Shown here: positions 7,557 through 46,147 of the stretch, piece by piece
Layout: each line of letters begins with the position of its first letter
Position numbering within the stretch: position 1 is the stretch's first letter
DNA from: an uncultured Pseudomonadota bacterium
GTDB lineage: Bacteria; Pseudomonadota; Alphaproteobacteria; JACZXZ01
Reading direction: 5' to 3'
Assembly: GCA_963749075.1 (NCBI GenBank)
Contig: CAVVLJ010000016.1
Coordinates: forward strand, 736,001-800,000
Length of the DNA stretch: 64,000 bases
Translations under genes and position numbers: made by a program
Notes under the pieces: model-generated
Databases searched by the model: none
What the model was told of the DNA's origin: nothing
Seen by the model: only the letters and a program-made list of their open reading frames with translations

Positions 7557-8057
7557 TCATTGATACTCGTCGCTCACCTCTCGCGCGGAATGAAATGCCA
7601 CGACGCTCCAATGTCGTCGTCCGGGTGCCGTAGATTTGTGCCAGACGCCCGCCGGTACGACGTGCCAGCGATCCTCGAGCACCGCCGGAGCGCCCTCGCC
7701 GAAACGATCCACGCGCCAGCGGCCCTCCGTCTCGACGTGCGTCTCGATGGGGCCATCGAGCGCAAAAAGATACTGTGTGCTATTGGCATGCCGCTCGACG
7801 CCCGCGCCATCGGCATCGCGTGTCGCGGCAACCCTGATGCTGCCGGCTGCAACGGGTGCCGCACCCCCGAGGCCCGCCGGGTCCAATGTCACGAAGGTTG
7901 CCGGCATGCTCGAATCCCGCTGAAGCTTCCTCACCGCTTCGGCCTGGGCGCGCCGCAGGGCGGCCAAAACATCGGGCCTGCTCGCGAATCTCTCCAGCTC
8001 CTCGACGACAGGCCGCTCGGCTGGCGTGATGCTTCGATTGTTTGTCGGCTGAGCCAT
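7557..8057 (-). CDS. Cupin-fold protein, ureidoglycolate-lyase-like
   Basis: ERHANSTQ...WHVVPAGVWH resembles the ERHP..Q...GVWH cupin motif; ATG at 8057 preceded by AAGGGGG. Confidence 0.6.
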   Translation of the reverse strand: MAQPTNNRSITPAERPVVEELERFASRPDVLAALRRAQAEAVRKLQRDSSMPATFVTLDPAGLGGAAPVAAGSIRVAATRDADGAGVERHANSTQYLFALDGPIETHVETEGRWRVDRFGEGAPAVLEDRWHVVPAGVWHKSTAPGRRHWSVVAFHSAREVSDEYQ

Positions 8058-8151
8058 CGATGACCCCCTTAGGTCGTGGATAGAAGTCTCAGACGAAAAG
8101 TACCGGAAGCCGGCCAATGCCAGTTGTAGGGCCTACATAGCACACGGCGCA

Positions 8152-8427
8152 TCGGTGCACATGGGCGTGGTGTTCATCGCGACGCTCGCCTTCGGCCTCA
8201 TCACGCCGCCCTATGGCCTCGCCCTCCTCATGTCGTCCAAGTTCGTGGGCGCGCGCTTCTCCGCGGCGCTCAAGGGGTCGTTGTCGATCTATGTGGTGTT
8301 CTTCCTCACCATCGCCTTCACCATCTTCTTCCCGCGCGTGGTGCTCTGGCTGCCGAAGCAGGTCATCCCGGAATCGGTCGGCTGCTTCAAATCGCCCTCG
8401 GGGCCGGGGTATATCTACCCGCCGTAG
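8152..8427 (+). pseudogene. Orphan 3' fragment of a second dctM (last 90 codons)
   Basis: About 65/90 identical residues (manual count) to the C-terminus of DctM at 239-1579; no upstream homology. Confidence 0.9.
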
Positions 8428-8543
8428 GGGCACAACTCGATCGGCATCGCCGGCGTGGCGGCTTGGGGCGGGCAGCGGAAATTGGATGGAGAAACCTAAG
8501 TCGTCTCCCATAGGCGGCTCGAAGTTGCCGGCCCGCTAGGTCG

Positions 8544-9155
8544 CTATGCCAGAAAATCTCTGACGAGACCCCAATACGGCCGGCGCTTTCTCTCGCATTC
8601 CCAAAACCCGATCTTCTCGGTCGGCGCGAAGCAGAAGAAGTCGGCGGGCGTGCGTGGGTCACGCCGCGACGTGTACCTCGGGCCATCGTCCATCAGCCAA
8701 ATCTCGGTGAACCCGAAGCCGTCGAAGTCGCTCGGAACGATCAGTTCTGCGAGTTCCTCGTGCACGTCGTATTGCGCCGGGCCTTCGACATCTTTGGTGG
8801 GCCAATCCAGATGACCCAACAGGATGACTGGCCGAGTATCGAAGATGCCGCGTCGATCGTAGCTCTCGTGCTTTTGGCTCGCTAGGCGCAAGAGCTCGGC
8901 AATGATGTGGTCGGCGCTGCCGGCCTTGATGAGGGTTAACTCGACCCCGGTCTCAATCCCGTCGATGAGCGCGATCCGGTCAGGTGACTCGCCGGCCGAC
9001 AAAATCTTGACCGTTCGACCTGTGATGACCGGGAACTCCGCCTCGAACGTATCCGCAACGCCAGTCTCGACCTCGCGCCCGCCGACTGCGTCCTCGTACG
9101 CGTCTCTTGATCTCCGCCCCATCGGAACCTTGTCTTGCTCAACCTTAAGTCGCAC
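8544..9155 (-). CDS. Hypothetical protein, possible PD-(D/E)xK nuclease fold
   Basis: Lower-GC ORF of about 190-200 aa; GESPD...GVELT pattern; start probably ATG at 9122. Confidence 0.55.
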   Translation of the reverse strand: MRLKVEQDKVPMGRRSRDAYEDAVGGREVETGVADTFEAEFPVITGRTVKILSAGESPDRIALIDGIETGVELTLIKAGSADHIIAELLRLASQKHESYDRRGIFDTRPVILLGHLDWPTKDVEGPAQYDVHEELAELIVPSDFDGFGFTEIWLMDDGPRYTSRRDPRTPADFFCFAPTEKIGFWECERKRRPYWGLVRDFLA

Positions 9156-9304
9156 AGAAATGTGCCGGAGTGAGTATGCTGACTTTAGTGGCGCTCGGCA
9201 ATCCGCATCAGCGCGGCTCGCTAATAGGGCGTTTCCGGCATCATTTTTCGGATAACTTCGCGTCTATATGGCGTCGTATAACCCAAGGGGGAAGCGGGGA
9301 GTCC

Positions 9305-10312
9305 ATGAGAAGCTCCATAGTCTGCTTACTGGGCGCCGGCTTTTCGTACGTTGGGGGGACTCCACTCGCTAGGGACCTCCTCAAGCCGAATTGGCTCATC
9401 ACGACGTCGGAGCGCAGTCGCCGGCGCTTCCGTATGGTTCGTGAGCATTACGAAAATTGGCAGAAAGACCACCCCGGAGAATATCCAGAGCAATACATGG
9501 AGCTGGTGTACACGCGGAGTGCGGGACCAAATACACCGAAGTGGGATTGGGTCGTAGAGTATGTCTGCGCTGTAATTGCGTCAGCGGGAACGCCATCAGC
9601 ATCATTAAATCGAAACCCCCGATATTCTAACCGCGTCAACCGGCCCTTCTATTGCGCGGCCCACCAACAATTTTGGAATGCACTTTTCAGCACCACTAGG
9701 GACCTCTCGGTGATCACGACTAACTACGACATTCTGGTCGAACGGGTATTGCGCCATCGGCCGATGCGCCGACCGTGGTCCCCTGGTTGCTTCTATGGCG
9801 GTCTTGCACGGCCTCAAATCCTAAAGGGAGCGGCTCAGCCATTTTCCCGATGGGCTCCGGAGCGCATCATTGAGATGACTGGGACGATACCCGTCTTCAA
9901 GCTCCATGGTTCGCTCAATTGGACACTGGACGGTCAGTCCATCGTCACCTTCCAGGACATGCGACCGGCATTTCGGCATGGTGGTACCGCAGCGATTATT
10001 CCACCGGTTCCGGAGAAGCTTGTGCCCCCATGGTTGCATGAAATTTGGCGCGAGGCGGAATCGAGCCTGCGCGGATCTGATTTGTGGGTGATGTGCGGTT
10101 ATTCCATGCCGGCCTATGACACCGAGGTGTTGCGACTGCTGAAGACAGCTGGGACCGGTTGGCCCCTTACCATTTTTCTCCTCAGCCCCGAGGCCGCCGC
10201 CCTCCAGAAAAGGTGGACAGGCCTCCTTCCTGAAGCCAGCACTATTTGTCTTCCAGGACTTCCCGAAGGGATCGAACCGCTCGCTCACCGCCTCGTGTCG
10301 TTGCCGCAATAG
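9305..10312 (+). CDS. SIR2-like (sirtuin/NADase fold) protein
   Basis: LLGAGFS, ITTNYDILVE, FKLHGSLNW and CGYSMPAYD motifs of the SIR2_2 type; lower GC than flanks. Confidence 0.88.
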   Translation: MRSSIVCLLGAGFSYVGGTPLARDLLKPNWLITTSERSRRRFRMVREHYENWQKDHPGEYPEQYMELVYTRSAGPNTPKWDWVVEYVCAVIASAGTPSASLNRNPRYSNRVNRPFYCAAHQQFWNALFSTTRDLSVITTNYDILVERVLRHRPMRRPWSPGCFYGGLARPQILKGAAQPFSRWAPERIIEMTGTIPVFKLHGSLNWTLDGQSIVTFQDMRPAFRHGGTAAIIPPVPEKLVPPWLHEIWREAESSLRGSDLWVMCGYSMPAYDTEVLRLLKTAGTGWPLTIFLLSPEAAALQKRWTGLLPEASTICLPGLPEGIEPLAHRLVSLPQ

Positions 10313-10624
10313 CACCATCAGGTAAACCAACCGAGGACCTCGCGAGCGGCAGGGGAGCCGCACGATACGCCCACCTTGTAGCGGCACGGCCGTTGTGACG
10401 TGCTATTCGTCGGCGTCATAGATGACTGCGACGCACTGTTGCCGGAGGGCGTATCGGGCGACGTTGATCGCGGGATGGGGGAGACCCTCGGCGATGCGCT
10501 CCTGCCCCGGCATCGGATGCGACCTTCCGCTGCCGCATACACCGGGCGGTAGGGAATGACCGCTTCGGGCCGAGAGCACCCGCTGGCGGGCCACGGCTGA
10601 CTTGGTTTTGACCCCAGCCCCGCC

Positions 10625-13361: not shown

Positions 13362-13573
13362 CTCGTTGATGCACACAAATCGTAAGATTACAGGTGCCTC
13401 GGACAGGCAGCGGTGGGTCCTTCGAGACGCTCGCTGCGCTCGCTCCTCAGGATGAGGTAAAGTCTTTCTGCCACACACAAATCTGCCTCATCCTGAGGAG
13501 CGCCCCGAAGGGGCGCGTCTCGAAGGACCCACGGCGGCCCTGCAAGTCTCTTGGACGTGTGTGCATCGACTGG
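13362..13573. mobile_element. Family A MITE-like element, copy 1 (212 bp)
   Basis: TIRs CTCGTTGATGCACACA ... TGTGTGCATCGACTGG around inverted arms CCTTCGAGACGC-loop-GCTCCTCAGGATGAG and the spacer AAGTCTTTCTGCCACACACAAAT. Confidence 0.85.
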
Positions 13574-14755: not shown

Positions 14756-15937
14756 ATGGCGACGCCGCGCGGACGCAACTTCTTTCAGGCACCGGGGCCA
14801 ACCAACATCCCGGAGCGCATCCTGCGCGCGATGGCGGCACCGGCGATCGACTTCAAGGGTGCGGAGTTCGAGGCCATCGCGGAAGAGTGCTACGCGGGCC
14901 TGCGGCAGCTCTTCAAGACCGAGGGGACGGTCCTCGTCTATGCCTCGTCCGGTCACGGCGCCTGGGAGGCGGCGCTCGCCAATACGCTCTCGCCGGGCGA
15001 CAAGGTGCTGGTGGTGGAGAGCGGCTATTTCTCGCTCAAGTGGGGCGAGCTCGCGCAAGGCCTCGGGCTCGAAGCGGAGACGCTGGCGGCGGACTGGCGC
15101 ACGGGCGCCGATCCGGCAGCGCTCGAGGCTCGCTTGCGCGAGGACCGCGGGCACGCCATCAAGGCCGTGATGCTGGTGCACAACGAGACCTCGACGGGCG
15201 GCGTCGTCGGCGTCGCCGAGGCGCGCCGCGCCATCGATGCGGCCAAGCACCCCGCACTCTTCCTCGTCGACGTGATCTCCTCGCTCGCCTCGCTCGATTT
15301 CCGCATGGACGAGTGGCGCTGTGACGTGGTGGTCGGCGGCTCGCAGAAGGGCCTCATGATGCCGGCCGGCATGGCCTTCACCGCGGCGAGCGCGCGCGCG
15401 ATGGCGGCAGCGAAGGAGGCGCGGCTGCCGCGCATCTATTGGGACTGGCGGCGGCTCCTCGACGGCAAGCGCCAGGTCCATTTCAACGGCACGGGACCCG
15501 TGCACTTCTTCTATGGCCTCAGGGAGGCGCTCCGCATGCTCGGGGAAGAGGGGCTCGAGGAGGTCTTCGCGCGCCACCGCCGCCTCGCCGAGGCGACGCG
15601 CCGCGCGGTGCGCGCCTGGCAGCGGAACGACGGGCCGGAAATCTACGCGGCGAACCCGCGCATCCGCTCGGACTCGGTGACCGCCATCCTCGTGCCCGAG
15701 GGCCACGACGCGGACGCGGTGCGCCGCTTGAGCTTCGAGCGCTTCAACGTCTCGCTCGGCGGCGGCCTGGGGCCGCTCCAAGGCCACGTCTTCCGTCTCG
15801 CCCACATGGGCGAGCTCAACGAGCCCACGCTCCTCGGCGCCATCGCCGCGGTCGAGATGGCGCTCAAGCTCGCAGAAGTGCCCCACGGCAAGGGCGGCGT
15901 CGACGCCGCGATGGAGTATCTCGTCTCGCCCGGCTGA
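14756..15937 (+). CDS. Class V PLP aminotransferase (serine-glyoxylate aminotransferase-like), paralog 1
   Basis: PGPTNIP, HNETSTG, VDVISSL, GSQKGLM and FRLAHMG motifs. Confidence 0.93.
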   Translation: MATPRGRNFFQAPGPTNIPERILRAMAAPAIDFKGAEFEAIAEECYAGLRQLFKTEGTVLVYASSGHGAWEAALANTLSPGDKVLVVESGYFSLKWGELAQGLGLEAETLAADWRTGADPAALEARLREDRGHAIKAVMLVHNETSTGGVVGVAEARRAIDAAKHPALFLVDVISSLASLDFRMDEWRCDVVVGGSQKGLMMPAGMAFTAASARAMAAAKEARLPRIYWDWRRLLDGKRQVHFNGTGPVHFFYGLREALRMLGEEGLEEVFARHRRLAEATRRAVRAWQRNDGPEIYAANPRIRSDSVTAILVPEGHDADAVRRLSFERFNVSLGGGLGPLQGHVFRLAHMGELNEPTLLGAIAAVEMALKLAEVPHGKGGVDAAMEYLVSPG

Positions 15938-16206
15938 ACCGTGCATGGATTGCAAGGACGCTTGCACTTTCATCGCGGGTCCTTCGAGACGCGCCCCCGG
16001 CGCGCCAAGCGCGCCTCTCTTGCATCATGCAAGAGAGCGGGCCTTCGGCCCGCGGGGCGCTCCTCAGGATGAGGCAGATTTGTGTGTGGCAGAAAGACTT
16101 AACCTCATCCTGAGGAGCGAGCGCAGCGAGCGTCTCGAAGGACGCACCGCACTTGGTCCGAGGCGCCTTTACCTTGCGGAGCGCCGCTCGTCGCGTGCTT
16201 CTTACT
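15934..16206. mobile_element. Family A element, copy 2 (reverse orientation, 55-bp three-hairpin module in one arm, decayed TIRs)
   Basis: Core at about 15977-16148 matches copy 1 in reverse; module at 15999-16053; ends approximate. Confidence 0.8.
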
Positions 16207-19201: not shown

Positions 19202-19386
19202 CTAACGCTGAGTTACGAGGGGTCGCGACGCTTGCGGCGACGCAGTGGGTCCTTCGAGACGCAACCCTTTCGGGTTGCTCCTCAGGACGAGGTCAATTCG
19301 TGTGTGGCAGAAAGATTCTAACTCATCCTGAGGAGCGAGCGTAGCGAGCGTCTCGAAGGACGCACTACAGCCGGTCCGAGACCCAC
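19202..19386. mobile_element. Family A element, copy 3 (reverse orientation, right end missing)
   Basis: Core at 19245-19365 with arm loop AACCCTTTCGGGTT; flank CCGGTCCGAG as in other copies; ends approximate. Confidence 0.8.
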
Positions 19387-19423
19387 TATCGCTCTCCACG
19401 TCGAGCCAGCGGGCGTCGCTCAT
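19387..19423 (-). pseudogene. 12-codon N-terminal remnant (MSDARWLDVESD) of the gene coupled to the MNT; probably a HEPN-type partner
   Basis: ATG overlaps the MNT stop (ATGA at 19420-19423); the frame runs directly into family A copy 3. Confidence 0.5.
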
Positions 19424-19749
19424 TCGAGCACCAGGCCGTCCTTGAGCACGCGTGCGACAAATTCGGGCTTGCAGTACAGGGCTGGCCGAACATCCGGCGT
19501 CAAGCCAAGGCGCCGGCATTCGCCCTCGGCGAAGCGGCGGGCTTCGGAGGTGCTGGTCTCCGGAAAATCGACCAGGATGTCGATGTCGCTGTCGAAGCGA
19601 AGGCGATCCTCGGCGGCCGATCCGAAGACGATGAAACGTCCGCCGCGAGCCCGGGCATAAGAGCGCAGCGCCTCGCACAGGGTCGCGAAACCCTGACGCA
19701 TGGCCGCCACGTGCGCACGTTTCTGCTCGGTCAGCGTCGGGAACGTCAC
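19420..19749 (-). CDS. Minimal nucleotidyltransferase (MNT) domain protein
   Basis: VFGSAA...DSDIDILVD motif; 109 aa. Confidence 0.88.
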   Translation of the reverse strand: MTFPTLTEQKRAHVAAMRQGFATLCEALRSYARARGGRFIVFGSAAEDRLRFDSDIDILVDFPETSTSEARRFAEGECRRLGLTPDVRPALYCKPEFVARVLKDGLVLE

Positions 19750-23139: not shown

Positions 23140-23183
23140 GGAGGCTCGGGTGCGCGGCGCGCGCCGAGCCCGATGTGGAGGTA

Positions 23184-23231
23184 CCCCCCTCCCTGACCCT
23201 CCCCCTCAAGGGGAGGACTAGGAGAGGGGAG
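23184..23231. repeat. Family B REP-like unit (left arm of the doublet around the GIY-YIG gene)
   Basis: CCCCCTCCCTGACCCTCCCCCTCAAGGGGAGG; its reverse complement recurs at 24302-24332. Confidence 0.75.
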
Positions 23232-23232
23232 A

Positions 23233-23994: not shown

Positions 23995-24062
23995 GAGCCC
24001 CCTCCTTCGTGTCTCAACAACATCTTCCGGCGACGGCTCCCCACCTCCCCCTCCCTTGAGGG

Positions 24063-24301
24063 CTAAGGGATGCACACATCTCGAGGAGCCTTGCAGTACC
24101 GCTGTGGGTCCTTCGAGACGCGCCCCTTCGGGGCGCTCCTCAGGATGAGGCGATTTCGTGTGTGGCAGAAAGACCTAACCTCATCCTGAGGAGCGAGCGC
24201 AGCGAGCGTCTCGAAGGACCCACCGCAGCCAGTCCGAGGCACCTTTGACCGCGCGACACCGCGCTTTGCCGGTGATATTCGGACTTGTGTGACTCCCATA
24301 G
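24063..24301. mobile_element. Family A element, copy 4 (239 bp), inserted in a family B REP hairpin
   Basis: TIRs CTAAGGGATGCACACA / TGTGTGACTCCCATAG (13/16 match); flanking direct repeats CTCCCTTGAGGG (24051-24062) and CCCCCTTGAGGG (24302-24313). Confidence 0.88.
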
Positions 24302-24332
24302 CCCCCTTGAGGGACAGGGTCAGGGAGGGGGG
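24302..24332. repeat. Family B REP-like unit (right arm, interrupted by family A copy 4)
   Basis: CCCCCTTGAGGGACAGGGTCAGGGAGGGGGG, inverted relative to 23184-23215. Confidence 0.75.
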
Positions 24333-24377
24333 TCGCTCGAGCATCGGCGCCCGGCTCGCGCGCGTCGCGGATCGGCC

Positions 24378-26319: not shown

Positions 26320-26404
26320 TCCCTGGCGCCCCCTTGCTCATGCCCCGGCTTCGCTCATATCAGAGCCGGGTGCTTAAAGCAACCCCTTGTGATTGCTAAT
26401 CCTT

Positions 26405-30893: not shown

Positions 30894-30952
30894 CGCGAGC
30901 GACGATGCGTGTGGCGGTCGCCGCCTGTCCTCTCCCTCCCCCGCGAGGGGGG

Positions 30953-31235
30953 CTGCGCGGTGAATGGAAGTCAGAGAAGCAATGGCAGAGTGGTGCCGTG
31001 GCGCCTCGGACCCCGCGCAGTGGGTCCTTCGAGACGCTCGCCCGGCGCGCGAAGTGCGCCTCTCCGCATGATGCAAGGGAGCGGGCCTTCGGCCCGCCAG
31101 GCGCTCCTCAGGATGAGATCAAGTCTTTCTGCCACGCACAAATTGCCCTCGTCCTGAGGAGCAACCCGCAAGGGTTGCGTCTCGAAGGACGTGCGGTGGC
31201 TCTGCCAGCGTTCCTAAGATGTGCGAATGCCGTAG
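30953..31235. mobile_element. Family A element, copy 5 (about 283 bp, with the three-hairpin module), inserted at a family B-like hairpin
   Basis: Core at 31020-31190; module at 31044-31097; right TIR TGTGCGAATGCCGTAG; flanks CGCGAGGGGGG (30942-30952) / CTCGAGCGGGG (31236-31246), 9/11 match. Confidence 0.78.
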
Positions 31236-31290
31236 CTCGAGCGGGGCAGGGGAGCGGGCTCGACGTCCACGGTGCCGGGGCGGCCCGCCG

Positions 31291-35265: not shown

Positions 35266-35266
<1 letters not shown>

Positions 35267-35356
35267 CGGTGCTGTCCCTCACCCTCCCAAGGCTTCGCCT
35301 TGGGTCCCTCCCTCTCCCGTTTACGGGAGAGGGTCGGGGTGAGGGCCGGCACCGCC
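35266..35356. repeat. Family B REP-like multi-hairpin unit
   Basis: CCCTCACCCT-CCCAAGGCTTCGCCTTGGG-TCCCTCCCTCTCCCGTTTACGGGAGAGGG-TCGGGGTGAGGG. Confidence 0.8.
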
Positions 35357-35453
35357 TTTCAAGGAGATGCGAGCGATGCAATCGGCTGCACGCGACCGAG
35401 GCGGGGGTGCGCATCCTTGAGGAGGGCGGCAACGCGATCGATGCGGCACGGTC
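35350..35453 (+). pseudogene. Degenerate duplicate of the ggt RBS and 5' end with an internal deletion of about 100 bp
   Basis: CACCGCCTTTCAAGGAGA...ATGCAATCG and GTGCGCATCCT...GAGGGCGGCAACGCGATCGA match 37633-37835. Confidence 0.85.
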
Positions 35454-35599
35454 CACAGCAGTCGATACAGTGCCGAACTTCGCCTGGAATTACGTTCGGC
35501 CGAAAGCAAGTGATCGTATTCCTATGGACAGGATCACGATCTGCACCAACTCCACTCCATATGGTATTGTCAAAGGCGGTATTCCGGTAGCGGGCGCCA

Positions 35600-37227
35600 T
35601 TACGCAGCCCGTGCAATTCTCCTAGTGTCACTCAGCGCCCGATCGATCAAACAGTCCATCTCAAGGCGGACGAGGTTGTTGTCCAGAGTCCCGATATTGT
35701 CGGAGCGAGTTTGCTCCGGGGCCGAGCCCACCGCAATTCTTTGCTCGACCGCATTGCGCAGTCGCCGCAGGCGGAATTCCTCGAAAGGTACAATTGCCGC
35801 CACGACGCTTTGGCGTGCCGCCGTCAAGTGACCCAAGACCGCCTCGGCGTGCGCATTGATCAGGCGCAGTGCCGCGCGCTCCTCGACATCTATCCCCGGG
35901 CGTGCTGAGATACTCATCAAGATGTCGCGCGCAGCTTGCGCTCGCCTTGACGCGATCCGTGCGACGGCCAGCGTCGTCTCGAAGTAACGCTTCTGCTCAT
36001 AATACGGACAGGTCGCGGCATATTCAATGAGACGATCGGCAAAAGCCGGTGATATGCCCTCCCTCATTTCAATCATCAAAAGAACGTGGACACCGATCCA
36101 TTCGCTCAAACTGCGGGGCTTGCGGACCAGAGATTGAAGGATCGAACGTGCTTCGTCCGAGCGCCTAATTCCACAAGAACGACTGCTTGTCCAACAATGT
36201 TGAAATCAGACGGCAATTCCCCTCTCCCGTTTGGTAGGCGGCGAGCGCCTCATCGAGCCGCCCCATGGCGCGCAGCGTCTCGGCGCGGCCGTTCCGTGCG
36301 ACGGCATTCTCCGGAAATGCCTCGACCGTCCGGTCATAGGCGGCGAGCGCCTCATCGAGCCGCCCCATGGCGCGCAGCGTCTCGGCGCGGCCGGTCCGTG
36401 CGTCGACTTTCTCCGGAAACGCCTCGACCGTCCGGTCATAGGCGGCGAGCGCCTCATCGAGCCGCCCCATGGCGCGCAGCGTCTCGGCGCGGCGAATGTA
36501 GAAATGCAGAAGAATGTTGTAAGATGTATAATTGAACGTATTTAAAATGCGGAGCTGTGCTAGTTGTAAGAGAATGAATTTTTGACTATACTGAAGCTGG
36601 CTTATAATGAAGTGTTACGGAGTGATATGAACTTGAACATTGGATATTGATTGTTTGAGAACTGTAGTGGTGAGAGTAGGGGTGAGCGCAGTTTTGCAGG
36701 AGCTTGAACTGCTAAGCTTGTACAGCAGAGCACAAGGATAAATATTGTGGTAGCTTGAATTTTTTGTGTGAGATATAATAAGTTTAAGTTGAGGTTTGAG
36801 AAATGATTGAAAGTGGTTGGAGATCTGTCCAATTGACATTTTTGGCGAAGAATATTTTTGTCCGTAGATCGCCTTGATCGCCATCGAAGATACCCGTTGC
36901 CAACGCTGCAACAAGCCCGTTATCGTACGCTTGGTCCAATGCAGCTGTGCCTTCGACCGAGGTTAATTTCTTCTGGTAACCCCAAGCCCGGACCTCGTCC
37001 TCGATTTGGAGGAGCAACGGCGCACTAACGATGCCATAGAGTCTTTCAACTCTCTTGAGCTCCTCCTCGCGCGCCAAGCGTAGCGCGCCGAAGAAATCCC
37101 AGGCTTGACTGGCAACTGGTTTCAGAAAACGCCTCTCAATGAACTCCGCGACCGCTCGGTCCGCAAGCACGCGATCGGCGCGGCGTATATTGCGACGCCG
37201 CAAATCCCAATCCAGTTCGGGGTCCAT
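35600..37227 (-). pseudogene. Probable disrupted TPR-repeat protein gene (N-terminal part 36830-37227, TPRs 36235-36493, C-terminal part 35600-36109)
   Basis: Three same-strand ORF pieces; TPR unit GRLDEALAAYDRTVEAFPE..ARNGRAETLRAM; interrupted by an AT-rich block and a frameshift. Joining the pieces into one gene is inference. Confidence 0.6.
36235..36493. repeat. 102-bp tandem repeat (2.5 units) encoding 34-aa TPRs
   Basis: Unit starts TAGGCGGCGAGCGCCTCATCGAGCCGCCCCATGG at 36235, 36337 and 36439. Confidence 0.95.
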
Positions 37228-37658
37228 ACCGATCAGGATCCATGGAGAGTTTCGAAGCGGCGCGTCTCAATTTTAAGAGTTAATTTAGAGGTTATCTTCT
37301 GTTAGTGGACCATCGGCCGTAGGATCGAATACCCGCACCTCAAGCCAAGATCAAAGAAGAACCGGATATCGTTCGCCTGGGGCGGCGCCGGTCCTCACCT
37401 TGGAAAAGCCAGTCTCGCCGAGAGGGAAGGGGCCCGGCCCGCAGAGATGTGAATGTGACGGCTGAGTTCATGCGCCAACTTGGTTGATCGCCGCAATTCC
37501 GGATGCGGTAGCTTTGAGCAACCGAACTCCCAAGCCTCTCGGTCGTCGGCGTCGGTTAGAGGTCTATCCAATGTCACCTGTCCAATGCTTCTCGGGGCAG
37601 AGTACCGTTTGGACGGGAAGGGTGAGGGACAGCACCGCCTTTCAAGGAGACCAGAGCA

Positions 37659-39413
37659 ATGCAATCGACTGCACGTGCCCTTCTTATTCTCGTCCTCGCG
37701 ACCCTCCACGCCCACGCGGCCACGCGCCCGGCGGTCGAGGCCGAGCATGGCATGGTCGTCGCCGCCCAGCATTATGCGACCGACGTTGGCGTGCGCATCC
37801 TGCAAGAGGGCGGCAACGCGATCGACGCCGCGGTCGCGGTCGGCTACGCGCTCGCGGTGGTCAACCCCTGCTGCGGCAACATCGGCGGCGGCGGCTTCAT
37901 GACCATCCACCTAGCCGACGGGCGCGACAGCTTCATCAATTTCCGCGAGACGGCACCGGCGGCGGCGACGGCGACCATGTATCTCGACGCGGCCGGCAAG
38001 CCCATTCCCGGCGCCAGCCTCTACGGCTACCTTGCCGTGGGCGTGCCGGGCACCGTGATGGGGCTCGAGAAGGCACTCGCCGAGTACGGCAGGCTGCCGC
38101 GCGCGAAGGTCATGGCGCCGGCGATCGCACTCGCGCGCGATGGCTATCTCCTGGCCCGCGCCGACACCGACATCCTCGACAACAAGGTCGCACGCTTCGG
38201 CCGCGACCCCGCCGCGCGCCGGATCTTCCTCCGGCCCGACGGCACGCCCTTCGAGCCCGGCGACCGCCTCGTCCAGAGCGACCTCGCCGCCACCCTGGCG
38301 CTCATCGCCGAGCGCGGCGCGGACGCCTTCTACGAGGGCCCCATCGCGGCGGCGGTGGCGGCGGCGAGCAAGGCCAATGGCGGCATCCTGACGGCGGACG
38401 ACTTCGCCCATTACACGGTAACCGAGGCTGCGCCGCTCAGTTGCAGCTACCGCGGCTACGTGCTGCTCTCGGCACCCCCGCCGAGCTCGGGCGGCGTCAC
38501 CATCTGCGAGATCCTCGACGTGCTCGAGGGCTACGACATGGCGGCGCTCGGCTTCCGCTCGGCCCGCTCGGTGCATCTCATGGTCGAGGCCATGCGCCAC
38601 GCCTTCATGGACCGCAACAGCTACCTGGGCGACCCGGCCTTTGTTAAGAACCCGCTTGAGCGCCTGCTCTCCAAGGACTACGCGGCTCAGATCCGCGCCG
38701 CGATCCAGCCCGACAAGGCGACGCCGTCGGCGGCGGTGGCGCCAGGTGTGGCGCCGCACGAGAAGGCGGAGACCACGCACTACTCGATCGTGGACAAGGA
38801 GGGCAACGCGGTCTCGGTCACCTACACGATCAACGGCTACTTCGGCGCCAACGTGATGGCGCCCGGCACGGGCTTCTTCCTCAACGACGAGATGGACGAT
38901 TTCACCATCAAGCCCGGGACGGCGAACCTCTTCGGCCTGGTGCAGGGCAAGGCGAACGCCATCGAGCCCGGCAAGCGGCCGCTCTCCTCCATGGCGCCCA
39001 CCATCGTGACCAAGGACGGCAAGGTCTTCCTCGTGGTCGGCAGCCCGGGGGGCTCGCGCATCATCACCATCACGCTCGAGACCGTGATGAACGTCATCGA
39101 TTACGGCATGGGCCCGGAGGAGGCGGTCGACGCGCCGCGCCTCCATCACCAATGGCTGCCCGATGAGGTGTTCTACGAGCCCTACGGCCTGTCGCCCGAC
39201 ACGATCGCGCTTCTCACGGGCATGGGCTACAGGCTTAAGGAGCAGCCGCCCTGGGGGGCGGCCGAGCTCATCGAGATCGCAGGCGTCGCACCCGCCGCCA
39301 GGGGCAGCGCCTCCTCGGGCAACGGCGCGGCGCTCTCCGGCCGCTTGCGCGCTGGCTACCTCTACGGCGCCAACGACGACCGCCGCCCGGCGGGCGAGGC
39401 GGCGGGATATTGA
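37659..39413 (+). CDS. ggt: Gamma-glutamyltranspeptidase (exported)
   Basis: GGNAIDAAVA, FRETAP, ETTHYS (Thr nucleophile), LNDEMDDF, KRPLSSMAP and GSPGGSRI motifs. Confidence 0.96.
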   Translation: MQSTARALLILVLATLHAHAATRPAVEAEHGMVVAAQHYATDVGVRILQEGGNAIDAAVAVGYALAVVNPCCGNIGGGGFMTIHLADGRDSFINFRETAPAAATATMYLDAAGKPIPGASLYGYLAVGVPGTVMGLEKALAEYGRLPRAKVMAPAIALARDGYLLARADTDILDNKVARFGRDPAARRIFLRPDGTPFEPGDRLVQSDLAATLALIAERGADAFYEGPIAAAVAAASKANGGILTADDFAHYTVTEAAPLSCSYRGYVLLSAPPPSSGGVTICEILDVLEGYDMAALGFRSARSVHLMVEAMRHAFMDRNSYLGDPAFVKNPLERLLSKDYAAQIRAAIQPDKATPSAAVAPGVAPHEKAETTHYSIVDKEGNAVSVTYTINGYFGANVMAPGTGFFLNDEMDDFTIKPGTANLFGLVQGKANAIEPGKRPLSSMAPTIVTKDGKVFLVVGSPGGSRIITITLETVMNVIDYGMGPEEAVDAPRLHHQWLPDEVFYEPYGLSPDTIALLTGMGYRLKEQPPWGAAELIEIAGVAPAARGSASSGNGAALSGRLRAGYLYGANDDRRPAGEAAGY

Positions 39414-41839: not shown

Positions 41840-41961
41840 GAGCTGGTCCTCGATTGTTGGACAGGCGGCAGCAGACTTAGGGTGTATTCCGCCGAATAAC
41901 GGAGGAGTGCGAGACGGCGGAATACACCTTATCGCCCTGCCCGATTTTCCAGGACCAGCTC
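41840..41961. mobile_element. 122-bp MITE-like palindromic element (family D)
   Basis: 11-bp TIR GAGCTGGTCCT/AGGACCAGCTC; inner 14-bp inverted repeat GGTGTATTCCGCCG (41881-41894 / 41915-41928); flanks GCCGTT/GCCATT. Confidence 0.6.
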
Positions 41962-42097: not shown

Positions 42098-42424
42098 ATG
42101 ATGGACAAAGAATTGGCCAGCGATCCGATTCTAACCCGCTTCCGCGCCGCCTTAGACGACCTTTATGGCGCGCGGCTGGCTCGGGTCGTGCTCTTCGGTT
42201 CGCGCGCGCGCGGCGAAGGCGGACGTTCGTCCGATTACGACGTCGCCGTGTTCCTCACCGCCTTGTCCGACCGTTGGGCGGAACTCGACCGGCTGGCCGA
42301 TCTGCGCGTGCGGTTCCTCGACGAGACGGACACCTTCTTCGACGCCATGCCCTTCCCGGCAGCGGCGTATCGTGATCGCTCGCCGCTCATGCACGAAATC
42401 CGGCGGGACGGCCTTGACCTGTGA
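42098..42424 (+). CDS. Minimal nucleotidyltransferase (MNT) antitoxin-like protein
   Basis: VLFGSRARGE...SSDYDVAV motif. Confidence 0.9.
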   Translation: MMDKELASDPILTRFRAALDDLYGARLARVVLFGSRARGEGGRSSDYDVAVFLTALSDRWAELDRLADLRVRFLDETDTFFDAMPFPAAAYRDRSPLMHEIRRDGLDL

Positions 42425-42828
42425 CTCCGGAGGCATCCGCCTTTTTGGCGAAAGCGCAGCACCTGCTCGCCGAGGCGGACACCATGCTTGGCGTTGGCCT
42501 CAACGATGCTGCGGGACGCACGGCCTACCTCGCGGGCTTTCACGCCGCCCAGGCGCTTATATTCGAGCGCCTGGGCAAAATGCTTAAATCCCACCGGGGT
42601 GTGCAAACGGAATTCCTGCGGCTGACCAAAGACGACGCAAAACTGACGGTCGCCCTGCGCGGATTCCTCTCCCGCGCGTATAATCTCAAGGCAATTGCCG
42701 ATTATGAAACTGGCCCCGGTTCCGAGATATCGCGGGCGCGGGCAGGCGAAGCCGTGCGAACAGGCAAGCAGTTCGTCGCTCATGTTGAGGCGCAGGTTGC
42801 CGCGCCCGAAAAGCCATCAAGCCGGTAA
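42421..42828 (+). CDS. HEPN domain protein (UPF0332-like)
   Basis: AYLAGFHAAQAL, KSHRGV and IADYE; GTGA overlap with the MNT gene. Confidence 0.88.
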   Translation: MTPEASAFLAKAQHLLAEADTMLGVGLNDAAGRTAYLAGFHAAQALIFERLGKMLKSHRGVQTEFLRLTKDDAKLTVALRGFLSRAYNLKAIADYETGPGSEISRARAGEAVRTGKQFVAHVEAQVAAPEKPSSR

Positions 42829-42851
42829 TACGCGAATCGGGCATTCACATC

Positions 42852-43161
42852 GTCATTCCCGCGAAAGCGGGAATCCAGCATCGTCTGGACCCCCGCTTTC
42901 GCGCTAGCAGATGCACACATCTTGAGGGGGCTTGCAGATCCGCCGTGGGTCCTTCGAGACGCGCCCCTTCGGGGCGCTCCTCAGGATGAGGCAAATCTGT
43001 GTGTGGCAGAAAGACTTTTCCTCATCCTGAGGAGCGAGCGTAGCGAGCGTCTCGAAGGACGCACCGCGGCCGGTCCGAGGCCCCTTTGCAGCGCGCAACA
43101 TCATGATTTGCCGGTGATCTTAGAAATTGTGTGCATCAACTAGCGCTTTCGCGGGGGTGAC
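42852..43161. repeat. Family C REP-like doublet (GTCATTCCCGCGAAAGCGGGAATCCAG...CTGGACCCCCGCTTTCGCGGGGGTGAC), interrupted by family A copy 6
   Basis: Left arm at 42852-42878; right arm split into 42885-42903 and 43144-43161. Confidence 0.85.
42904..43143. mobile_element. Family A element, copy 6 (240 bp, best preserved)
   Basis: TIRs CTAGCAGATGCACACA / TGTGTGCATCAACTAG (14/16 match); perfect 10-bp duplication CGCTTTCGCG at 42894-42903 and 43144-43153. Confidence 0.92.
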
Positions 43162-43192
43162 GCCGGGTGTTTCAACCTGATCGGATCATGCT

Positions 43193-46147
43193 CTATGCGC
43201 CCGGCCCGGCGAGTGCCGCGGCCAGCACGCGGGCCACATGCACCGCCTCGCGGCCGGTGGCGTCCTTGATCTGGTGGCGGCAGCTCGTGCCGCAGGCGAC
43301 GAGGAGGCTCTCGGGAGGTGCTGCGCGCACGGCGGGGAGGAGCGAAAGCTCGGCCATCTTGAGCGAGGCGCCGTAGGTCTCGGCCTGGTAGCCGAAGACG
43401 CCAGCCATGCCGCAGCAGGAGGCGGCAATGGTCTCGACCGCGAGGCCGGGGACGAGGCGGAGCGTCGCCTCGAGTGCCGTCATGGTAGCGAAGGCCTTCT
43501 GGTGGCAGTGGCCGTGGACGAGTGCGCCGCGTGCGCCGGCGGGGCGGAGCTCGAGCGAGAGACGGCCCGCCTTCGCCTCCTCGGCGACGAACTCCTCGAA
43601 GAGCCTGGCGCTCGACGCAAGTGCTGCCGCCTCCTCGCCGAGACCGAGCACGGTGAGCTCGTCGCGCAAGGTCAAGAGGCAGGAGGGCTCGAGGCCGACG
43701 ACCGGCACGCCGCGCGCGACGTAAGGGCGCAGGCCCGCGAGCAGGCGGCGCATCTCCTTCCGCGCCTCCTCGACGAGCCCCACGGCGAGGAAGGTGCGGC
43801 CGCAGCAGAGCGGCCGGCCGCCGTCGGCCGCCTCCGCCACCTGCACGCGGTAGCCCGCGGCCTCGAGCACGGCGAGCGCCGCGTGGCCGTTCTCGGGCTC
43901 GAAATAGGTGGTGAAGGTGTCGGGGAGGAGGACGACCTCGCGGCCACCCGGATTTCGCGATGCTCCCGGTGCCCTGAAGACGTCCCGGCGCCACTGCGGC
44001 AGGGTGCGCGCGGCGGCGACGCCGAGCCAGCGCTCGCCGAGCCGGCGCAAGCCCGGGACCGCCTCGCGCAGGTTGCTCAAGGGGGCGAAATGGGCGGCCC
44101 AGGGCGCGTAGCGCGGCAGATAGGCCACGAGCCGGTCGCGCAAACCGAGACCGTGGCGCTTGTTGTAGTGGTGGAGGAACTCGATCTTCATGCGCGCCAT
44201 GTCGACGCCCGTCGGGCACTCGCGCTTGCACGCCTTGCAGCCGACGCAAAGGCGCATGGTCTCGGCCAGATCGTCGGCGGCGAGGGCATCGGGGCCGAGC
44301 TGGCCCGAGAGTGCGAGGCGCAGCGTGTTGGCGCGGCCGCGCGTCACGTGCTGCTCGTCGAGCGTGGCGCGGTAGGAGGGGCACATCACGTTCGCGTCGA
44401 ACTTGCGGCAGGTGCCGTTGTTGTTGCACATCTCGACGGCACGGCCGAGGCCGCCCCACGCGGACCAGTCGAGCGCCGTGGCGATGGCAGCCGTGCCGTA
44501 GCCGGGCTTGAAGCGGAAGAGGCTGCGCTCGTCCATCTTGGGCGCGCGCACGATCTTGCCGGGATTGAAGAGGCCCTTGGGGTCGAGCGCGTCCTTGACC
44601 GCCTCGAAGTCGGCCACCATGCGCGGCCCGAACATCGCCGCGTGGAACTCGGAGCGCACCAGCCCGTCGCCGTGCTCGCCCGAGTGCGAGCCCTTGTACT
44701 CGCGCACGATGGCGAAGGCCTCCTCGGCGATGGCGCGCATCTTCCGCGCACCCTCCGGGTCCTTCATGTTGAGGACCGGGCGCACGTGGAGGCAGCCGAC
44801 CGAGGCGTGGGCGTACCAGGTCCCCACGGTGCCGTGCCGCGCGAAGATTTCGTCGAGGCGCCTCGTATAGTCCGCGAGGTCGTCGAGCGACACCGCGCAG
44901 TCCTCGATGAAGGAGACCGGCTTGCCGTCGCCCTTCATCGACATCATGATGTTGAGACCCGACTTGCGCACCTCCCAGATGTCGCGCTGGAAGGCCGGGT
45001 CCGTCGCCTCGACGACGGCACCGGGGAAGCCGAGATCGCCCATGAGCTCGGCGAGCGCCTTGAGCCGCTTCAACTGCGGGGCGAGTTCGTCGCCGGCGAA
45101 CTCGACGAGGAGGAGGGCGGCCGGCGTACCGCGCACGAAGCGCTCGAGGGTGCGGCGGAAGAGCGGGATGTCGCGCGCGAGCTCGATCATGGTGCGGTCG
45201 ACGAGCTCGACCGCGTCGGGACCGAGCCCGACGATGCGCTTGGTCGCCGCCATGGCCGCGTAGAAGCTCGGGAAGTGGCAGACGCCGAGCGCCTTGTGCT
45301 TGGGAAGCTTATGGAGCTTGAGCTCGATGCGCCGCGAGAAGGCGAGCGTGCCCTCGGAGCCGACGAGGAGGTGCGCCAGATTGATGGGCGGCGCGTTGGC
45401 GCCCCGCGGTGCCAGGGCATCGATATTGTAGCCGCCGACGCGGCGCTGCAGCTTGGGGAAGCGCTCGGCGATCTCGCCCGCCTCGCGCCGGCCGAGCTCG
45501 AGGAGCCGCGCCACCATGGCGCGCTGTGCTGCGCTCAGGCCCGCCGTACCGTCGCCCTCGGCGAGTTCGGCAAAGCGCATGGCGCTGCCGTCGGCGAGCG
45601 TCGCATGAATTGCCCGCACGTTGTCGCGCATGGTGCCGAAGCGGATCGAGCGGGCGCCGCAGCTGTTGTTGCCCGCCATGCCGCCGAGGGTCGCCTGGCT
45701 CGAGGTCGAGACGTTGACCGGGAAGAAGAGCCCGTGCGGGCGCAGAAGCGCGTTCAGGCGGTCGAGCACGATGCCCGGCTCGACGACGGCTCGGAGTGCC
45801 GCCGCGTCGAGCTCGAGGAGGCGGTTGAGCCGCGGGCTCACGTCGACGACGAGCGCCTCGCCCACGGTCTGGCCGCATTGCGAGGTGCCGCCGCCGCGCG
45901 GCAGGAGCGGGATGCCCTCGTCGGCCGCGATGCCGACGATGCGGGGGATGTCGGCCTCGCTCGCCGGGATGGCCACGCCGATCGGCTCGATCTGGTAGAT
46001 CGAGGCGTCCGTCGAGTAGCGCCCGCGCGTTCCGGCGTCGAAGCGCACCTCGCCCTCGATCCCGCTCGCGAGGCGCGCAGCCAGCGCGCTGTCGCCGATG
46101 CGGGAGTGCGCCGCCCGGCGACCGGTGGGGCTGCCTTGAGCCATCAT
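43193..46147 (-). CDS. FAD-linked, Fe-S-containing oxidoreductase (D-2-hydroxyacid/glycolate dehydrogenase YdiJ-like)
   Basis: RGGGTSQCGQ, GSEGTL, SGEHGDG, CNNNGTC, CVGCKACKRECP and CCG domains. Confidence 0.93.
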   Translation of the reverse strand: MMAQGSPTGRRAAHSRIGDSALAARLASGIEGEVRFDAGTRGRYSTDASIYQIEPIGVAIPASEADIPRIVGIAADEGIPLLPRGGGTSQCGQTVGEALVVDVSPRLNRLLELDAAALRAVVEPGIVLDRLNALLRPHGLFFPVNVSTSSQATLGGMAGNNSCGARSIRFGTMRDNVRAIHATLADGSAMRFAELAEGDGTAGLSAAQRAMVARLLELGRREAGEIAERFPKLQRRVGGYNIDALAPRGANAPPINLAHLLVGSEGTLAFSRRIELKLHKLPKHKALGVCHFPSFYAAMAATKRIVGLGPDAVELVDRTMIELARDIPLFRRTLERFVRGTPAALLLVEFAGDELAPQLKRLKALAELMGDLGFPGAVVEATDPAFQRDIWEVRKSGLNIMMSMKGDGKPVSFIEDCAVSLDDLADYTRRLDEIFARHGTVGTWYAHASVGCLHVRPVLNMKDPEGARKMRAIAEEAFAIVREYKGSHSGEHGDGLVRSEFHAAMFGPRMVADFEAVKDALDPKGLFNPGKIVRAPKMDERSLFRFKPGYGTAAIATALDWSAWGGLGRAVEMCNNNGTCRKFDANVMCPSYRATLDEQHVTRGRANTLRLALSGQLGPDALAADDLAETMRLCVGCKACKRECPTGVDMARMKIEFLHHYNKRHGLGLRDRLVAYLPRYAPWAAHFAPLSNLREAVPGLRRLGERWLGVAAARTLPQWRRDVFRAPGASRNPGGREVVLLPDTFTTYFEPENGHAALAVLEAAGYRVQVAEAADGGRPLCCGRTFLAVGLVEEARKEMRRLLAGLRPYVARGVPVVGLEPSCLLTLRDELTVLGLGEEAAALASSARLFEEFVAEEAKAGRLSLELRPAGARGALVHGHCHQKAFATMTALEATLRLVPGLAVETIAASCCGMAGVFGYQAETYGASLKMAELSLLPAVRAAPPESLLVACGTSCRHQIKDATGREAVHVARVLAAALAGPGA

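Follow-up and report, generated by a model that had tools for sequence, protein, structure and literature searches.

Across the 64,000-nt stretch of DNA analyzed here (the window), most of five small islets of foreign genes share their intergenic spacer with palindromic repeats of known kinds, a pattern more in keeping with the documented instability of such spacers than with a new cassette system anchored on repeats. Two of the islets carry MNT genes, one as an MNT-HEPN pair and the other alone; the others are a type IV restriction nuclease of the PD-T4-3/CMoRE kind, a SIR2-like gene, and a decayed TPR islet. Islet GC content is low, at 0.53-0.59 vs 0.68 for the window. The first-pass annotation had placed every accessory or defense-like gene in or beside a palindromic repeat or a duplicated gene end, and had read this as a repeat-anchored cargo system. 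Its repeat families, A-D, are for the most part real, and most of its placements stood; the placement of the TPR islet and family D did not, and "every" is too strong, because four of the five islets adjoin a repeat of families A-C but the borders of the SIR2 islet hold no clear one. Its interpretation drew partial support from repeat-bearing empty alleles in relatives, but none for a dedicated cassette system. As it had stated, the window contains no integrase, transposase, or RAYT gene detectable by Pfam scan (0 found in 90 + 26 main window ORFs and 115 islet ORFs from six-frame translation).

The comparison set comprised five syntenic MAG relatives, and 11 loci (labeled L001 and so on) were fetched. 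These relatives are distant, with amino-acid identities of 61-70% for YcbB and 74-89% for the liv and opp proteins, and their junctions have diverged; the sites of three of the five islets could be compared with them. Judged by its sequence, family B matches the published BoxC/PIT/"triplex motif" (TM) type of REP and appears widespread and old. A complete unit at 35269-35346 (plus strand) carries the canonical three-block motif at 35307-35345, which agrees with the E. coli TM/BoxC sequences in Table 1 of Holder et al. 2015 (NAR, PMC4666352), and is 84% identical to the livK/livH units of L002 and L004. B units also occur in orthologous spacers (livK/livH of L001-L004, livF/SDR of L009, SBP5'/oppB of L003 and L004), and matches to the family were obtained in 29 plasmid or chromid records, 19 of which are from Azospirillum. 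Within the window, a two-block B-like hairpin 3' of the SBP5 gene (30925-30965) weakly matches L004 59-79. As in the BoxC/PIT/TM elements presented by Holder et al., a short loop separates a C/T block from a complementary G/A block, which a short linker joins to another G/A block, with block sequences nearly equal to their E. coli list; the units are likewise intergenic, multicopy, and arranged in inverted pairs, and the loci that carry them vary by indels among relatives. Unlike those elements, the family B unit is part of a longer compound palindrome, which adds a 5' arm and another small hairpin, and its host is an alphaproteobacterium of 68% GC, the triplex likeness here being one of sequence alone. 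Defense genes inside a doublet are not described in sections 15 and 19 or Table 1 of that paper. Family B also resembles the REP/BIME and REPIN-RAYT elements outlined by Bertels and Rainey 2011, Nunvar 2010, and Ton-Hoang 2012 (PMC3333891) in being short, GC-rich, and extragenic, in forming inverted doublets, and in lying between operon genes, but differs from REPIN-RAYT in having no RAYT gene within the window.

The livK/livH spacer measures 1238 nt in the window vs 132-151 nt, with a B unit alone, in four of the five syntenic relatives; in the fifth, it measures 362 nt and holds other repeats. The window allele contains a GIY-YIG nuclease gene of the PD-T4-3/CMoRE type (23233-23994, minus strand; 253 aa, GC 0.53), which matches the PADLOC model PD-T4-3 over its full length (3.2e-94) and the PDB entries 9U7U/9U75 (1e-69). 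PD-T4-3 has been described as a type IV restriction enzyme (PMC12923530). The gene does lie in a family B doublet, as claimed, between inverted B-like arms at 23157-23213 and 24303-24361 (59 nt, 85% complementary, E=7e-9 to 7e-12). On the livH side, a B-like (BoxC-like) hairpin with its outer arm occupies 23157-23232 (minus strand) and is 91% identical over 35 nt to L004 108-141. The second B-like hairpin is split into an inner half at 24030-24062 (minus strand), which contains the left family A duplication 24053-24062, and an outer half with its outer arm at 24304-24361 (plus strand), inverted relative to 23157-23213; a family A copy thus also lies between the arms, beside the gene. The interval between the doublet's two hairpins is taken up by this gene as a tight single ORF, with a foreign flank of only ~13 nt upstream and ~19 nt downstream.

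A comparable difference is seen at livF/SDR, where the spacer measures 657 nt in the window vs 191 nt, with a B unit alone, in L009, the one relative covering the site; the lone MNT gene is absent from the L009 spacer. This MNT-type nucleotidyltransferase gene (19420-19749, minus strand; Pfam PF01909 at 3.9e-8, with a visible GS..DxD motif) abuts family A as had been reported, ~35 nt from the copy at 19228-19384. That copy occupies the place expected for a HEPN partner of the lone MNT. Empty-site alleles therefore exist in relatives at both livK/livH and livF/SDR, whereas their absence would, by the first-pass annotation, have refuted its proposal, and they carry repeats. This suggests that small cargo was gained in this lineage at spacers bearing repeats; the sequences partly support this reading, in a comparison made without a rooted tree, where gain and loss are not formally separable.

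Repeats and foreign genes may, however, share few spacers because each persists only where insertion is harmless, at operon ends or where a binding-protein gene gives way to permease genes, with the repeats having no role in cargo entry. We consider such pure coincidence unlikely, yet substantial enough to be weighed with care. The repeat-bearing livK/livH and SBP5/oppB spacers are both binding-protein gene/permease junctions, and it is at such ABC-operon junctions that REPs are classically found, stabilizing upstream mRNA. Two further observations favor coincidence and count against a link between repeats and cargo, namely, the borders of the SIR2 islet, and the oppF/GGT spacer, which varies in L003 with no repeat there. 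In-window enrichment of accessory genes at repeats was obtained for the five islets by Fisher test (p=0.010) but is fragile and depends on the null model: the spacer-length-weighted chance of at least four of five islets falling in repeat-bearing junctions was p=0.04-0.25, which favors coincidence, and all p-values are post hoc because the window was chosen for showing this pattern. Against coincidence stand the position of the nuclease gene, which is enclosed precisely by the hairpins of a single B doublet and so does more than share a spacer with it, and the homology at the TPR islet, which begins in a B unit. Moreover, in all three spacers that bear repeats in relatives, the window allele departs by >200 nt, vs one to two of six repeat-free spacers. 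A similar tendency was reported for 56 E. coli strains, in which TM/BoxC loci were rearranged more than randomly chosen intergenic control sites (PMC4666352). In Pseudomonas, mobile elements and strain-specific genes were reported in REP deserts (PMC3390384), which is the opposite trend, for large islands.

The MNT-HEPN pair (MNT 42098-42424, HEPN 42421-42828, plus strand, with a 4-nt overlap; Pfam PF01909 at 1.5e-8 and PF05168 at 5.8e-7, PADLOC PDC-S09 at 1.3e-21) had been placed between families D and C. It is indeed flanked by a hairpin at 41870-41935, 3' of the SBP3 gene, and by family C at 42845-43192, but the former is no repeat family. Neither the rest of the window nor the 11 loci from relatives contain another copy of this hairpin, and "family D" was rejected. 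Family C has one occurrence in the window, interrupted by a family A copy. Its left part (42845-42903, plus strand), which includes the left family A duplication 42894-42903, is 90% identical over 50 nt to L009 3023-3072, and its right part (43144-43192, plus strand) is 79% identical over 42 nt to L009 3070-3111. The two matches abut in L009, which thus holds an uninterrupted copy; family C is a second compound palindrome, and it is this copy alone that shows it to be a repeat.

Family A is represented by six copies in the window (self-BLAST, E 1e-24 to 2e-72) and has the build of a MITE, 212-240 nt long with 16-nt terminal inverted repeats and 10-bp target duplications. The copy at 13362-13573 (minus strand) is full length at 212 nt and retains both terminal inverted repeat ends, with no clear target duplication, in the spacer of the divergent genes for a 2Fe-2S subunit and a formyltransferase. 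Two plus-strand copies carry a nested palindromic module: that at 15960-16171, of a subfamily with a ~56-nt module (15995-16052), has convergent genes on either side, and that at 31000-31246 (module 31041-31096) lies in the SBP5/oppB spacer, which in relatives contains another SBP5 gene along with a B unit. The copy at 19228-19384 (plus strand), just 3' of the lone MNT gene, has degenerate ends. The remaining two, both on the plus strand, each occupy a hairpin loop, one in family B and one in family C. The first (24063-24301, 239 nt) interrupts the loop of the B-like hairpin and is bracketed by a 10-bp direct repeat (24053-24062/24304-24313); the second (42904-43143, 240 nt) lies in the second hairpin of family C, has a 10-bp direct repeat at 42894-42903/43144-43153, and folds end to end (z=-10.8). 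Such 10-bp repeats thus flank two of the three full-length copies, and because asymmetric loop bases have the same orientation on both sides, these flanks are duplications and not palindrome arms. The uninterrupted family C unit of L009 represents a paralogous empty site for family A. Family A was absent from all 11 loci fetched from relatives and from the plasmid collection. It is a separate, lineage-specific MITE that is free of cargo, inserts in hairpin loops of other repeats, and presumably depends on a transposase encoded elsewhere. Insertion into REPs is known from several IS elements (IS1397, ISKpn1, IS621, and IS1594, as listed by Delihas 2011, PMC3184786); family A shares with them its specific insertion into existing palindromic repeats, as its copies in the B and C loops illustrate, but differs in being noncoding, in its 10-bp target duplications, and in lacking a match in the plasmid collection.

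The TPR islet (about 35448-37597, minus strand; GC 0.55, with one 313-nt stretch at 0.40) contains unk169 (35600-36109), a 5'-truncated TPR ORF with three 102-nt tandem repeats (36165-36470), and unk147 (36784-37227), for which the atlas gave only a weak phage-like feature match of low recognition value. The islet had been assigned to a split B unit, but the B unit is complete at 35269-35346, and the islet is instead flanked by a direct repeat of ~250 nt. The left copy of this repeat (35337-35447, plus strand) has lost 101 nt internally and consists of a B 3' arm, a ribosome-binding site, and a pseudo-fragment of the GGT 5' end; the right copy (37598-37831, plus strand) consists of a degenerate B hairpin, a B 3' arm, a ribosome-binding site, and the functional GGT start. 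Segments 35337-35392 and 35392-35447 correspond to 37620-37675 and 37776-37831, respectively, at 84-88% identity. A direct repeat reaching into the 5' end of GGT appears to be a Campbell-type signature, and the islet would have entered by a crossover of this type over the ~250 nt of shared sequence formed by the B unit and the GGT 5' end. In L003, the one relative covering oppF/GGT, a different gene and no repeat are found.

The SIR2 islet (8428-10400, GC 0.59) contains unk203 (8544-9155, minus strand), which returned only hypothetical-protein clusters from the atlas, and a SIR2_2-domain gene (9170-10312, plus strand) with matches to Pfam PF13289 (3.2e-5) and to PADLOC SIR2 models (down to 1.2e-10) and none in the PDB. 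It does follow a dctM 3' end, as had been described, but not a fresh duplication. The fragment (8153-8427, plus strand) gives a borderline Pfam match to the DctM C terminus (profile positions 352-412 of 413) and is 76.6% identical over 273 nt (8153-8425) to window positions 1305-1577. It lies 6.5 kb from the intact dctM; because the identity is 77%, we regard it as an old paralogue remnant.

The islets could instead be worn-down integrative elements, phage-like or integrase islands targeting gene ends, that lost their recombinase by deletion and whose scars were colonized by repeats later, an origin we hold to be very improbable. The direct repeat of the TPR islet holds a gene 5' end and so resembles attL/attR, and the truncated TPR ORF, the 0.40 GC stretch, the unk147 match, and the dctM fragment adjoining the SIR2 islet could all be taken as remnants. 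However, B units sit in the empty alleles of relatives, and repeats therefore preceded cargo at livK/livH and livF/SDR; the nuclease cassette has hardly any foreign DNA at its flanks, the 115 six-frame ORFs include no integrase pseudogene, and no intact dctM adjoins the SIR2 islet.

The first-pass annotation had proposed that several REP/MITE families together may act as landing pads that gain and lose single-gene cassettes with the help of trans-acting enzymes. In the form weighed here, families A-D would be served by an enzyme encoded elsewhere (a RAYT, the transposase of family A, or some other nuclease), much as in an integron lacking IntI. Two sites with repeat-bearing empty alleles, cargo units of only one or two genes each, and the lack of a recombinase in the window are in keeping with this proposal, and family A attests to past activity in this lineage of a trans-acting transposase that recognizes hairpin loops. 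The nuclease gene, a single promoterless ORF in the same orientation as the liv operon around it, also recalls an integron cassette; unlike in integrons, the cargo has no IntI, attI, shared attC-like element, or cassette array. In window self-BLAST, the cargo borders share nothing but the resident repeats, and therefore no attC-like element is present. The junctions also differ from each other (a ~250-nt Campbell-type repeat into GGT, a single ORF in a B doublet, and a paralogue remnant), the family A copies have no ORF and keep their own terminal repeats and target duplications apart from the cargo, and D is no repeat family. The GIY-YIG gene belongs to a characterized restriction enzyme family and is no mobility enzyme; its plasmid homologues are annotated beside toprim/TraM-recognition-domain genes in Bosea, integrase/HNH genes in Rhizobium, and repC/IS66 transposase genes in Roseibium. 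Cargo genes are not known from REPINs. With neither a shared recombination site nor a trans-acting enzyme found, landing pads of this kind are very improbable.

We somewhat favor independent entries of the five islets into repeat-bearing spacers, in separate events and by more than one route, for which no single repeat-anchored cassette machinery would be needed. Repeats and cargo would then coincide because repeat-bearing spacers are both unstable and insertion-tolerant points of the chromosome; by analogy with the E. coli BoxC/TM work, the instability of B repeats may itself have caused cargo to enter. Family A would then have joined the same spacers, drawn by the hairpins that it targets. 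A similar arrangement was reported for the variable folA-apaH spacer of E. coli, which carries the ccdO157 toxin-antitoxin genes, with a REP in about half of the isolates (Mine et al. 2009, via PMC3184786). There too, the presence of a small accessory cassette varies in a spacer between core genes that has a REP and no recombinase, although that case concerns another organism and repeat family and one locus, where a part played by the REP is, again, only suspected. The stretch belongs to the ordinary core chromosome of a sparsely sampled alphaproteobacterium whose operon-border spacers carry layered palindromic repeats; that such spacers are unstable or permissive sites is a known phenomenon, and the new part is the family A MITE.

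The core of the window, mapped from GC3-filtered ORFs and Pfam matches, is made up of ordinary operons for metabolism and transport, with TRAP transporter genes, a molybdopterin oxidoreductase, livKHMGF, an L,D-transpeptidase, an opp-type ABC operon, a gamma-glutamyltransferase (GGT), and pstSCAB. The GC content of the window is 67.8%. On the same map, this core is broken by five small low-GC or accessory inserts: the SIR2 insert (7557-10400), comprising two unknown genes separated by a dctM fragment, followed by a SIR2-like gene; a lone MNT gene (19420-19749); a GIY-YIG nuclease gene (23233-23994); a TPR islet (about 35448-37597); and an MNT-HEPN pair (42098-42828). The first-pass annotation had proposed that palindromic repeat families A to D serve as integrase-free landing pads for such cargo, and had seen no integrase, transposase, or RAYT in the window. 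Pfam searches of 116 main ORFs and 115 six-frame islet ORFs bore out the latter observation, as none of these domains was found. Scans for tRNA genes and Rfam families across the window were likewise empty; the window thus contains no tRNA attachment site, and the repeats do not belong to a curated RNA family. The best nucleotide matches of the window genes were ~72-78% identical, mostly from Azospirillum and other alphaproteobacterial replicons, and a megablast search of 7000-46500 against a plasmid collection found nothing closer than ~72-78% across gene-sized stretches, with mostly Azospirillum, Sinorhizobium, and others among the matches. Over 100 plasmid records from Ralstonia also matched some part of the window over short stretches at 90-95% identity, probably through a short repeat or a conserved piece of a gene.

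Several features of the core were recorded alongside. Two class-V aminotransferase paralogues (14769-15868 and 46453-47540), 32 kb apart, are 69% identical over 1.1 kb. The spacer at 3324-3431, upstream of a PAS-GGDEF-EAL gene, has an unusually low GC content (0.42) and is probably a promoter or regulatory region. The YcbB-type L,D-transpeptidase gene (26355-28592, minus strand) and the adjoining isochorismatase gene (28292-29260, plus strand) both look frameshifted, as the YkuD catalytic part of the former scores in a different frame (26408-26932) and the Pfam match of the latter is divided over two frames near 28970; they are either pseudogenes or the result of assembly indel errors.

A genome-contig search with the YcbB residues encoded by 26748-28103 returned 11 loci, five of which (L001-L004 and L009, from related MAGs) are syntenic with the window and encode liv and opp proteins 74-89% identical to its own. 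The livK/livH spacer measures 1238 nt in the window versus 132-151 nt, essentially one unit of repeat family B, in four of these relatives; that of L009 consists of 362 nt of other repeats, including a unit of family C, a compound palindrome. In the window, B-like parts frame the nuclease ORF. In order, the spacer consists of an outer arm, a first hairpin whose loop now hosts a family A copy, the ORF with margins of about 13 nt on its upstream side and about 19 nt on its downstream side, then a second hairpin and another outer arm. This second hairpin occupies the place of the B unit in the relatives and shares its linker, which puts the nuclease gene between the paired hairpins of a B doublet, in agreement with the first-pass annotation. 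The empty alleles to be expected of such a site were also present, with the B unit alone and no nuclease gene at livK/livH in the four relatives and the B unit alone at livF/SDR in L009. Besides its family C unit, the L009 livK/livH spacer carries another compound palindrome (2860-2950, arms of ~35 nt) of a type unseen in the window.

The GIY-YIG protein matches the PADLOC PD-T4-3 model over positions 5-252 of 256 (E = 3.2e-94), and its residues 7-250 align with residues 11-258 of PDB 9U7U (E = 1.3e-69), a full-length match to CMoRE; the CMoRE structure 9U75 matches likewise (E about 1e-69), and the Pfam match is to LEM-3-like GIY-YIG. The gene thus encodes a full-length PD-T4-3/CMoRE homologue, a predicted type IV restriction nuclease. 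In the relevant passages of PMC12923530, PD-T4-3/CMoRE is a type IV restriction endonuclease for DNA containing 5hmC and glucosyl-5hmC, with activity shown for E. coli proteins only. We also considered this protein as the mobiliser of the repeats, and rejected that role because it is a full-length PD-T4-3/CMoRE homologue. Identity to its nearest database relatives is 79% and then falls to about 66%, and homologues on plasmids neighbor genes with toprim and TraM-recognition domains (Bosea), integrase and HNH genes (Rhizobium), or repC and IS66 genes (Roseibium).

Family B itself is not new. Its complete unit (35269-35346) contains, at 35307-35345, a C/T block followed by its G/A complement and a further G/A block, and the block sequences nearly match those of the E. 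coli BoxC/PIT/'triplex motif' (TM) elements tabulated by Holder et al. 2015 (PMC4666352, Table 1). A scan for the triplex-motif pattern (a pyrimidine block, a 1-6 nt loop, a complementary purine block, a short linker, and a second purine block) recovered the window's 35307-35345 as well as units of L002, L003, and L004, with 0 hits in 50 shuffles; the two B-like units on either side of the nuclease gene are degenerate and do not pass the strict pattern. The complete unit recurs at 84% identity in spacers of the related MAGs, where copies occupy three different spacers, and the family matches 29 plasmid or chromid records in 77 places, 19 of these records being from Azospirillum. Judged by this sequence pattern, family B is a BoxC/PIT/TM-type repeat, multi-copy, intergenic, and conserved across genomes. 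A purine/pyrimidine mirror hairpin at the 5' end of an FAD-oxidase ORF (46205-46235) also passes the scan. The hairpin at 41870-41935, which had been taken for a fourth family, D, has no second copy in the window or the 11 fetched loci, and we no longer treat it as a repeat family.

Family A is present in six copies in the window, three of them full length (13362-13573, 24063-24301, and 42904-43143). Its termini are 16-nt inverted repeats that agree at 13-14 of 16 positions in the three full-length copies, and the entire element folds into one hairpin (z = -10.8). Direct repeats of 10 bp surround two of the three (42894-42903/43144-43153 and 24053-24062/24304-24313), while the copy at 13362-13573 has no flanking direct repeat. 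Their central four bases are asymmetric and read in the same direction on either side, so these repeats are target duplications and not palindrome arms. Taken together, these features mark family A as a predicted MITE. Both duplicated targets are the tips of short hairpins within other repeats, one being the B-like hairpin adjoining the GIY-YIG gene and the other the second hairpin of family C, whose unit lies downstream of HEPN (42845-42903 and 43144-43192). In L009, the family C unit is uninterrupted, and its halves abut exactly at the position of the window's 240-nt A copy. None of the 11 fetched loci, with the orthologous spacers of the relatives among them, contains family A, and a distant-mode search of the plasmid collection gave no match. 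Two A copies contain a nested palindromic module of ~56 nt with three small hairpins (15995-16052 and 31041-31096, with 89% mutual identity), which may be another mini-element or mark a subfamily of A.

Of the five cargo sites, the fetched loci cover three, at livK/livH, livF/SDR, and oppF/GGT, the SIR2 and MNT-HEPN sites lying beyond them. At livF/SDR, the spacer of L009 is 191 nt long and contains one B unit, versus 657 nt in the window that include the lone MNT gene and a copy of family A. At SBP5/oppB, a B unit accompanies a second SBP5 paralogue in L003 and L004; the corresponding spacer of the window (30894-31271) has no second SBP5, and holds a B-like hairpin and the family A copy with the nested module. 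This difference could reflect a deletion in the window lineage or a gain in the others. The second paralogue (L003 5563-7137 and L004 174-1748) is 72% identical to the window SBP5. At oppF/GGT, the position of the window's TPR islet, L003 carries a gene for a 200-aa protein with a cNMP-binding domain (570-1172, minus strand) and no repeat. The oppF/GGT spacer is therefore variable in more than one lineage, yet without repeat anchoring in L003. The repeat-free DUF882/livK, YcbB/isochorismatase, and isochorismatase/SBP5 spacers have kept their length, and DUF882/livK has kept recognizable sequence too.

The TPR islet contains a 5'-truncated TPR ORF, a 313-nt stretch at 40% GC (36471-36783), and two ORFs without any family, one of which, unk147, has a weak phage-like lead from the atlas; the islet looks decayed. 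Within it, three tandem TPR-coding repeats of 102 nt (36235-36493) share 55 nt identical in all three, the whole units being 95-97% identical. The islet had been described as lying inside a split family B unit. We rejected this description in favor of a direct repeat, with one copy on the left (35337-35447), following an intact B unit, and the other on the right (about 37598-37831). The two copies are 84-88% identical across the B 3' arm, a ribosome-binding site, and the 5' coding part of GGT; 101 nt are deleted from within the left one, and the B hairpin of the right one is degenerate. Such a direct repeat would be the product of a single crossover by a circular molecule that carried a homologous segment, through either Campbell-type homologous recombination or a site-specific recombinase since lost. 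The homology begins in the B repeat and extends about 190 nt into the GGT gene, and the B repeat is therefore at most part of the target.

Among the other inserts, the MNT-HEPN pair (Pfam PF01909 and PF05168) consists of genes overlapping by 4 nt, with a GS..DxD motif visible in MNT. The HEPN nuclease motif is Rx4-6H, and the HEPN translation shows no clear instance of it; NCBIfam MntA scores are under the cut-off. In gene layout and MNT motif, the pair resembles a putative toxin-antitoxin of the HepT-MntA type. The SIR2-like gene has weak matches to PADLOC models of SIR2 defence, and its protein has no PDB match by sequence. The ORFs unk186, unk203, unk169, unk147, and a 115-aa ORF have no Pfam match at E up to 1; the four named ones have no PHROGs, PADLOC, or NCBIfam match either, and the atlas gives only hypothetical-protein clusters for unk203.

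The claim that every accessory gene sits at a repeat held in part. Core genes in the window meet at 26 junctions of 30 nt or more, with family A-C repeats in seven of these and cargo in five; four of the cargo junctions hold such repeats and one does not (Fisher one-sided p = 0.010). Weighted by spacer length, the probability of at least four of five is 0.04-0.06 without family A and 0.25 with it. Spacers that bear repeats in the relatives are altered in the window in 3/3 cases versus 1-2/6 of the repeat-free ones (p = 0.05-0.12). All these samples are very small, and the window was chosen for its repeat-cargo pattern. An association beyond chance is therefore suggestive, not established.

Two known systems differ from this arrangement. 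REPIN-RAYT systems have a RAYT gene flanked by its own REPs, whereas no Pfam match to such an IS200/IS605-like Y1 transposase was found within the window. Integrons have IntI, attI, and an attC at each cassette end, whereas the window lacks an integrase, and its self-BLAST revealed no repeat common to the 3' ends of the cargo genes. Passages in Holder et al. (PMC4666352) report that, across 56 E. coli strains, TM/BoxC loci have undergone far more rearrangement than control intergenic sites, by a mechanism unknown there. We found no published description of a defence gene inside a BoxC doublet in the open-access literature, though precedents for cargo at REPs exist: Delihas 2011 (PMC3184786) describes, among its examples, a REP-containing variable folA-apaH spacer that holds ccdO157, as well as REP-targeting IS elements. 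Against a general repeat-cargo rule stands the part of Loper et al. 2012 (PMC3390384) that places Pseudomonas mobile elements and strain-specific genes in REP deserts.

On balance, known phenomena account for the evidence better than a new system would. In the account we propose, B and C repeats would mark unstable, permissive spacers of the chromosome, and small cargo would have entered these spacers independently and by different routes. Family A would add itself to these spacers, since the hairpin loops in them would be the target of its transposase. A more specific reading, which we regard as unlikely, is that BoxC/triplex-motif doublets are recombinase-free capture sites: the palindrome would stall replication or be cut at its center, end joining or short REP-REP homology would capture DNA, single defence ORFs such as PD-T4-3 in the liv operon would be slotted between the hairpins, and family A would use the same structures.

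The finding mainly carries two published observations, the instability of BoxC/TM loci and the use of REPs as insertion targets, to an uncultured alphaproteobacterial lineage. To these it adds a new, putatively hairpin-targeting MITE (family A), one clean filled-versus-empty case of a predicted type IV restriction gene in a repeat doublet within an amino-acid transporter operon, and a probable Campbell-type islet whose homology starts in a repeat. Should the capture reading hold generally, the sites at which small defence genes enter the genomes of many bacteria could be predicted from a single conserved repeat type. If repeat-bearing spacers are true entry points, small defence and toxin-antitoxin genes would be predictable at BoxC-type doublets without a nearby mobile-element gene, and the origin of integrase-free 'islets' would gain a concrete sequence context.
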